This document shows positions 17,513 through 18,253 of a DNA stretch of 64,000 nucleotides, one piece after another; the first letter of the stretch is position 1, and every line of letters starts with the position of its first letter. The translations under genes were made by a program, and so were the position numbers. The stretch lies in the NCBI RefSeq assembly GCF_041886205.1, contig NZ_CP169030.1; one strand, given 5' to 3'. The notes below the pieces were generated by a model that worked only from the letters and a program-made list of their open reading frames with translations, made no database searches and was not told the origin of the DNA. This DNA comes from Escherichia coli (lineage in GTDB: Bacteria; Pseudomonadota; Gammaproteobacteria; Enterobacterales; Enterobacteriaceae).

Positions 17513-18253
17513 CTGCTACTCTAAAATAAAACAACACATGGGAGACTGTCTATTATTATTAATAACGAGTAACATTTGTTATTGCCATTTATGGTGCTCC
17601 CGGGATCAGTTTTAACCATAAGCAAGAAAATGTTTCTTTGAACGGTTAGACATCACAAATGAGCGTCTGCCAAAAGTTGATGTAGCGCTTGCGGAATGTG
17701 TTGAGATTATATAGGGAAAGAACTACGGGGAATTATTATTGCCAGGCTTTCTCCTATGAATTTTAGCCATATCAATAGACCTTTGCTCTCAGTAACGCAA
17801 AGAGAGCATCTTTACTGATTGAAGGTAGTCAAGCGACATATGGTCACTTATTTTCTCATGTGTCGCTTGACACTATCCTGAAGTTTTTTAAGTCGATTTA
17901 CGTCACCCAAAATGAAAAACTCCTTTGCATGAGTATTCATAATAATATCACAATGGTAAAGCTACATGACAGACATCTTAACTTAGTCAAGAGAGTACAT
18001 AACAACTTTGCTATTACATATATTCAGGGTTGTTTGTAGTGGTTCACAAAATCAGGACACTGGAATAACCTGTTTCCACTTTTCTTCATGTAAGCAAGGC
18101 GATAAACCACCATTGTTTGTATGAGGTCGATAAACGTTGTAATAACAATTTATCTACTGCTTTATATCGCGTACTGCATGACTAAAATCACCATAACTGA
18201 TCTTACCCAGCAATAGTGGACACGCGGCTAAGTGAGTAAACTCTCAGTCAGAG

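Follow-up and report, generated by a model that had tools for sequence, protein, structure and literature searches.

The locus analysed here raises the question why a strong hairpin (positions 17828-17871) stands in an apparently empty interval of an F-type plasmid, and whether it serves any function there. The window, by which we mean the whole stretch of 64,000 nucleotides that was analysed, had been annotated initially from its sequence alone. The initial annotation had reported a perfect 11-bp inverted repeat with a 22-nt loop in a non-coding region, about 300 bp past the last membrane-protein ORF and ahead of IS3. Direct reading of the sequence confirms the repeat, with the arms GTCAAGCGACA and TGTCGCTTGAC separated by 22 nt, as well as its location: 316 bp lie between the end of the upstream ORF (17512) and the hairpin, and IS3 begins at 18198 (Table 1). 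The 11-bp core contains 6/11 G-C pairs, and the centres of its perfect arms are 33 bp apart, corresponding to ~3 helical turns. A repeat search extended the arms to 15 nt (17828-17842 and 17857-17871), of which 14/15 positions are complementary, with 14 nt between them. In + strand RNA, the imperfect positions become G-U pairs, so that 16 contiguous pairs are formed.

The hairpin is as strong as the initial annotation had supposed. The fold prediction proposed there yields, for the + strand RNA, a free energy of -28.3 kcal/mol (z -5.3), a value that none of 200 shuffles equalled, and for the - strand RNA -22.8 kcal/mol (z -5.0). As single-stranded DNA, the hairpin reaches -14.0 kcal/mol on the + strand (z -5.4) and -12.6 kcal/mol on the - strand (z -5.5). 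In none of these four tests was any shuffle as stable as the hairpin, and z is about -5 on both strands. The frequency of such repeats was estimated from dinucleotide shuffles of the window. On average, a shuffled window contains 0.66 perfect inverted repeats whose arms measure at least 11 nt and whose loop is 3-50 nt, and 55% of the shuffles hold one or more; the real window holds 8. Since the shuffles give 0.66 such repeats per window, the repeat is possibly present by chance, and it could be a chance member of the window's 8. The 15-nt extended arms are rarer than the 11-bp core, at roughly 0.1-0.2 per window by our own arithmetic, which is not compelling. The other 7 perfect inverted repeats of at least 11 nt have short loops, and some of them have stems of ~17-21 nt; their number is well above the shuffle expectation of 0.66.

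The surroundings of the hairpin are those of the F plasmid. Window positions 17500-18197 share 99.4-100% identity with F and F-like IncF plasmids, among them the integrated F of laboratory strains, and the coordinates are offset by 13 relative to the F plasmid of strain EMG2. Judged by this identity, the window is F-type plasmid. The initial annotation had suggested a database search of the interval. In a sensitive DNA search, 17513-18037 was matched in full length only by F-type replicons. The part from 17513 to 17875 was seen in these replicons only, and 17875-18024 gave additional partial matches to the starts of ISNCY transposase genes. In PLSDB, the block is present in about 80 F-type plasmids. 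In the RefSeq F-type records examined, no feature is annotated between the upstream ORF and an IS3-family pseudogene fragment, which starts at ~18052 in window coordinates.

On the upstream side, a gene for a 1769-aa autotransporter (10762-16071, +) is followed by three small AT-rich ORFs of 90, 66 and 231 aa (16118-17512, +). The GC content of the three small ORFs is ~28-33%; together with the autotransporter gene, they precede the region of IS debris. On the downstream side, the ISKpn37-like fragment is cut by IS3 at 18198, and the resulting junction (18177-18198) was absent from every complete E. coli genome and plasmid in the collection searched. In F itself, this fragment runs on into an IS66 remnant that is interrupted by IS2. 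Matches to several chromosomal IS3 copies, which stand in different contexts, reach 16-21 nt leftward past the canonical end of IS3.

Table 1. Features around the hairpin and further inverted repeats, in window coordinates
Feature	Position	Strand	Remarks
Upstream ORF, 231 aa, hydrophobic	16817-17512	+	Hypothetical or YuaM family protein; convergent with the IS remnant
Decayed 5' part of an IS1202-family (ISNCY, ISKpn21-like) transposase gene	17652-17940	-	At least 2 frameshifts, 3 stops
Transposase residues 65-98	17750->17652	-	Score 62; shuffle mean 24.4 (sd 3.7); p<0.002
Transposase residues 44-73	17812->17726	-	Score 42; shuffle mean 26.4 (sd 4.0); p=0.004
Left arm of the hairpin	17828-17843		Core 17828-17838 GTCAAGCGACA; to 17843 with G-U/T-G positions
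Loop of the extended hairpin	17844-17855
Right arm of the hairpin	17856-17871		Core 17861-17871 TGTCGCTTGAC
Left end of the IS remnant	17941-18018	-	Terminal inverted repeat and 5' untranslated region, to the ATG at 17940
Spacer, 16 bp	18019-18034		TATATTCAGGGTTGTT; between the end of the ISNCY remnant and the next IS fragment; read directly
IS3-family (ISKpn37-like) 3' fragment	18035-18197	-	End at TGTAGTGG; RefSeq pseudogene annotation in F-type records and alignment
IS3	18198-19455	+	Left end TGATCTTACC at 18198; annotated 'IS3-like element IS3 family transposase'; right end placed on an element length that we take to be 1258 bp
IS3 orfA	18254-18562	+
IS3 orfB	18559-19425	+
Other inverted repeats	23982-24031, 26855-26895, 37694-37747, 44320-44350, 50649-50693, 52920-52967

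The partial matches to 17875-18024 identify the origin of the interval. There are more than 600 of them, at ~72% identity, in large enterobacterial plasmids and in some E. coli chromosomes, and all fall on the starts of genes annotated 'ISNCY family transposase'. In three examples, the match comprises the first ~65 nt of a 467-aa gene, on the opposite strand, together with ~75 nt upstream of it. In a multiple alignment, the remnant and the intact ISNCY copies share an element terminus, beyond which all sequences diverge. At 18018 in the window, this terminus reads ...GCTATTACA, or 5'-TGTAATAGCAAAGTTGT when taken on the minus strand. The terminal repeat, TGTAATAGCAAAGTTGTTATGT (18018->17997, minus), begins with 5'-TGT and aligns with the ends of intact IS1202-family copies. 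Over the left end as a whole, the DNA is ~72-75% identical to the left ends of intact ISNCY copies.

The ISAba32 subgroup of the IS1202 family, to which ISKpn21 is assigned, is characterised by 5'-TGT ends and a single transposase of 400-500 aa, and its members insert 5-6 bp from XerCD sites (bioRxiv 10.1101/2022.12.17.520857; PMC10132070). Two intact ISNCY/ISKpn21 copies (L005, from an E. coli chromosome, ~3150-3200, and L003, ~5400-5450) indeed lie within a few bp of dif or of a dif-like XerCD site, in agreement with the published target preference of the subgroup; in L005, dif lies just outside the terminus (GGTGCGCATAATGTATATTATGTTAAAT). Beside the remnant, whose left end would be expected 5-6 bp from the XerC arm of such a site, the spacer TATATTCAGGGTTGTT and the IS3-family end that follows it, read directly, are unlike GGTGCGCATAA-N6-TTATGTTAAAT. 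No second IS end was found, the end sequence being single-copy in the 64 kb even when 3 mismatches are allowed, and there are no direct repeats of 5-6 bp for the remnant. We also considered the YuaM-family ORF as a passenger gene of an ISKpn21-like element. This was rejected, as the ORF shows no similarity to the passenger gene of ISKpn21 and the window contains no right IS end.

Inward from its terminus, the remnant continues as a transposase gene on the minus strand. Residues 1-28 of ISNCY transposases are found by tblastn at 17940->17857 (MNTHAKEFFILGDVNRLKKLQDSVKRHM) with 50% identity. When the three minus-strand frames to the left of 17857 are aligned with the intact proteins by the Smith-Waterman method, residues 44-73 and 65-98 are recovered (Table 1). 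The three segments lie in three different frames and are colinear with the intact proteins. Residue 44, which the intact genes predict at 17811, was observed at 17812; the DNA between the arms thus retains its ancestral length to within 1 nt. When the segments are stitched together, in frames chosen by us, the resulting conceptual product of 98 residues aligns with transposase residues 3-99 (phmmer, 45.7 bits), and its residues 1-97 match 2,674 non-F records as a single colinear piece, with E values down to 2e-11 (tblastn, 7.3 Gb of plasmids). Curated profiles (the Pfam HTH families and NCBIfam NF033594) did not match the stitched translation, which we attribute to the short, degraded and X-containing query and to the filters of HMMER; the pseudogene call is one of pairwise and tblastn statistics. 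Past residue 98, neither tblastn nor Smith-Waterman alignment gave anything significant, including a possible weak continuation to ~17545.

Local GC content is 35-39%, and the intact relatives, as read from their sequences, look much more GC-rich over the same codons, which fits long decay. We searched for intact relatives by tblastn on plasmids, by a pattern scan of 100,044 species genomes and by a protein search with a 77-aa query, which returned 1 match. Among 72,556 plasmids and one genome each of 100,044 species, the closest relatives reach ~41% identity in protein and ~75% in the IS end. From the alignments described above, at least 17652-18018 (-) of the stretch called non-coding represents what is left of a degenerate IS1202-family (ISKpn21-like) element, consisting of the left end, the 5' untranslated region and ~98 codons. 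The term non-coding is thus apt in so far as RefSeq F-plasmid records annotate no gene there, but the repeat sits in a transposase pseudogene. The possibility that it is part of an unrecognised small element, also raised in the initial annotation, comes true in a restricted sense: the repeat lies inside an unannotated IS1202-family remnant, and is itself neither an element end nor a mobile unit of its own. That the sequence belongs to a known element end, or lacks conservation, had been named there as the refuting outcome, and this is essentially what we find.

The hairpin covers codons ~24-38 of the former gene, in the helix-turn-helix region (the first helices of the DNA-binding domain), ~150-190 bp inside the left end of the IS. 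On the minus strand, the right arm reads V-K-R-H-M, codons 24-28 of the remnant, opposite I-D-R-R-L of the intact relatives. The left arm reads H-M-S-L-D, opposite the (R/H)-L-G-I-S-(D) motif of the family. The loop contains the first in-frame stop (TAA, 17850-17848, minus) and the first frameshift, of ~1 nt, near 17854. At the same codons, five relatives (ISKpn21, three other intact ISNCY genes and one fragment) have no comparable hairpin, which indicates that the hairpin is not a feature of the family. In ISKpn21, the segments equivalent to the arms, read directly, are complementary at 4/15 positions, which is the level of chance. An in-frame insertion of 27-30 nt that created the hairpin was also considered, on the basis of an alignment by eye of the frame-0 sequence 'LCVTESKGLLIWLKFIGES' with LGISDRQ...YREDG. 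It was rejected because Pfam and NCBIfam gave no match and because the scored alignments continue in the other two frames with the length unchanged.

Variants of the stretch allow a limited look at constraint. Two variants of 97% identity (L009 and L010; one is on a Shigella plasmid and one in an E. coli O155 chromosome) carry 2 substitutions within the 44-nt hairpin. One is in the loop. The other is a C->T change at the last base of the right arm, which turns the outer G-C pair into G-T; this breaks the pair in DNA, while in + strand RNA a G-U pairing remains. By our count, the density of substitutions is ~4.5% in the hairpin and ~3% in the region. On these figures, the hairpin would seem no better preserved than its flanks, although the ~3% divergence available does not rigorously establish an absence of constraint. 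In one public contig, L008 (contig CATTZI010000076.1 of GCA_958327355.1, positions 2568-2644), the end of an IS91-family element is inserted at window position 17870, at the outer edge of the right arm and adjoining CAAG/CTTG; the contig ends within this element. The same 77 nt occur in 494 E. coli records, beside IS91-family transposase genes. A 43-aa ORF on this F-like contig (P0001), the single match of the protein search, had been considered as an ancestral form that diverges in the right arm, and was rejected in view of the IS91-family insertion at that point.

We compared the hairpin with several kinds of functional sites, among them a terminator lacking a T-run and a protein-binding site, both suggested in the initial annotation. 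Intrinsic terminators were taken to have a GC-rich stem, a loop of 3-8 nt and a T/U tract that starts 0-2 nt after the stem. Here the loop measures 12-22 nt, the only T-run is a T6 at 17885-17890, 14 nt 3' of the stem, and the terminator scan made no call; a terminator is not supported. In consensus scans, neither a terminator nor a promoter was called at the hairpin, and a TTGACA within the right arm, read directly, has no usable -10 hexamer 16-18 nt downstream. The sole terminator-like call in 17300-18300 lies at 17368-17400 (+), inside the 231-aa ORF and not after it. The idea of a protein-binding site fares no better. The motif occurs only at these two arms, within a pseudogene, and is not better kept than the flanks; elsewhere in the 64-kb window, the arm 11-mer is absent even when one mismatch is allowed.

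Nor does the hairpin resemble a small mobile element or a recombination site. Flanking direct repeats, another check proposed in the initial annotation, were not found, and one 10/11 direct match 158 bp away is within chance, with ~5 such pairs expected by our estimate. The hairpin has no target-site duplication, is single-copy in the window and occurs in F-type context only, unlike a MITE or other small mobile element. An XerCD site consists of two 11-bp arms with a dif/cer-like consensus, GGTGCG..A/TTATGTTAAAT, and a spacer of 6-8 bp; the spacer here is 22 nt (14 for the extended arms), and the arm GTCAAGCGACA, read directly, is unlike the consensus. In Rfam 15, the best overlapping match is a plant microRNA model with 13.3 bits (threshold 245 bits) and an E value of 4.2.

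Taken together, we propose, with a probability of about 0.8, that the hairpin is an incidental, non-functional repeat in a degenerate IS1202-family transposase pseudogene of an F-type plasmid. In favour of this reading, intact relatives have no such hairpin, the motif is unique in the window, the stretch is restricted to F-type replicons, the outer pair is broken in the variants, and there is no terminator, promoter, direct repeat or Rfam match. Against it stand the fold z of about -5 and the extension to 15-16 pairs, which is rarer than the 11-bp core.

For the origin of such an incidental repeat, we envisage the following. A truncated, AT-drifted remnant of the IS1202 family (ISAba32 subgroup, minus strand) lies between the YuaM-family ORF and the IS3-family/IS3 block. 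Its I-D-R-R-L codons gave rise to the right arm, and the codons around the L-G-I-S-D motif to the left arm. The repeat itself probably arose after the death of the gene, whether by random drift or through template switching at a quasipalindrome in the course of replication. Such template switching is documented as a route by which short inverted repeats are created and perfected (PMC7202029, PMC8794818, PMC5941160). When the arm DNA is compared directly with that of the family, 8/15 positions are alike in the right arm and 4-8/15 in the left. That the right arm is the more family-like is as expected if one arm was copied from the complement of the other. This difference, together with the frameshift and the poor similarity between the arms in a normally well-conserved motif, may be taken as weak hints in favour of the template-switch route. 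Today, the repeat would merely hitch-hike with the F-plasmid IS scrapyard. A transcript that crosses it would form a stable stem-loop, and nothing indicates that this is put to use.

The alternative that survives best is that the hairpin works in + strand RNA. It would then act as a pause site, weak terminator or 3'-end stabiliser for read-through transcripts of the autotransporter and YuaM-family genes, blocking 3' exonucleases in the manner of REP stem-loops and insulating the operon from the IS cluster. This would account for one observation that sits uneasily with an incidental repeat, namely that the + strand transcript folds better than that of the - strand, with both imperfections being G-U, which could hint at a use in read-through RNA. 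No terminator-like call was made between the end of the ORF and the hairpin, a T6 run is present downstream, and the C->T variant keeps its G-U pair on the + strand. However, the distance of this T-run and the size of the loop place the hairpin outside the terminator rule, and the scan did not call it. The variants show no covariation but a single, one-sided change, and the sequence is already accounted for as former coding DNA. We therefore regard a role in RNA as unlikely. A combined scenario, in which a hairpin born by template switching later came to serve as the 3' stem-loop at which read-through transcripts of the F autotransporter/YuaM-family operon end or are stabilised, seems to us slightly less likely still. 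If it were true, the locus would provide a modest case of an RNA structure with a regulatory role that originated in IS debris.

A second alternative shifts the function into the past. Several IS families limit their expression by RNA structure early in the transposase frame, and the hairpin may have worked in this way in the living IS, for instance by throttling translation of the transposase, and outlived the element. The hairpin does lie early in the transposase frame, and the DNA similarity to relatives ends abruptly at 17875, at its edge. On the other hand, the five relatives adopt other folds, and nothing comparable to the repeat is seen in them at these codons. With a position 70-110 nt past the start codon, the hairpin cannot mask the ribosome-binding site, and the 72,556 plasmids and 100,044 species genomes contain no close intact relative that would show the ancestral state. 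We judge this alternative to be very improbable.

Least probable of all is a site that acts at the level of DNA, be it for binding of a dimeric protein or, as a single-stranded hairpin in replication or conjugative transfer, for example as a hotspot for recombination or insertion or as a signal for priming. The perfect 11-bp arms at a distance of ~3 turns, the stability of the single-stranded DNA hairpin on both strands and the insertion of the IS91-family element exactly at the outer edge of the right arm, beside CAAG/CTTG, would suit such a site. The motif, however, has no second copy in the 64 kb and so cannot be assigned to any set of iterons or operators, nor does it fit an XerCD site (11-bp arms, 6-8 bp spacer, consensus). 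With a spacer of 14-22 nt, extrusion of a cruciform from duplex DNA is disfavoured, and the variants have a broken outer pair. The IS91 insertion is a single event that is explained by the known CTTG/GTTC target of this family. Single-strand promoters and priming sites are known from the leading region and oriT of F; on the F map, the hairpin presumably lies far from both. All three alternatives together claim only a small share of the probability, and the incidental repeat in a decayed transposase gene is the reading that we carry forward.

The practical gain is a correction of the annotation: 17652-18018 in F and F-like plasmids would be listed as an IS1202-family (ISKpn21-like) remnant, which explains the conspicuous hairpin. 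The hairpin itself is ordinary and of little importance. More generally, the locus suggests that strong and statistically unusual stem-loops can occur in decaying coding DNA without a regulatory role. Should the template-switch origin be true, it would add one more natural example of this mutational route to perfect inverted repeats.

Compared with known systems, the hairpin shares with intrinsic terminators a stable stem-loop 3' of an ORF and a T6 run somewhere downstream, but it differs in its loop of 12-22 nt, in the 14 nt that separate the T-run from the stem and in a stem that is not GC-rich. Like REP/BIME palindromes and MITEs, it is a palindrome with imperfections that lies outside intact genes and could lend stability to an mRNA from upstream; unlike these, it is single-copy, belongs to no family, has no target-site duplication and is confined to an F-type block. 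With template-switch products (PMC7202029, PMC8794818, PMC5941160), it has in common a near-perfect short repeat that lies in DNA free of constraint and whose arms are separated by a frameshift and a cluster of differences; the likeness is one of resemblance only, because showing a templated multi-nucleotide change would take a closer ancestral or sister sequence than those available. The surrounding remnant is unlike intact members of the IS1202 family (ISAba32 subgroup, 'ISNCY', NF033594), which have no such hairpin, in that it is without a DDE catalytic domain, right end, direct repeats and XerCD neighbour, carries at least 2 frameshifts and 3 stops, and is at most 41% identical in amino acids to any relative found. 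It is like them in its TGT end, in an ATG ~78 nt inside that end, and in its first 98 codons, which are colinear with the N-terminal helix-turn-helix region of the family.
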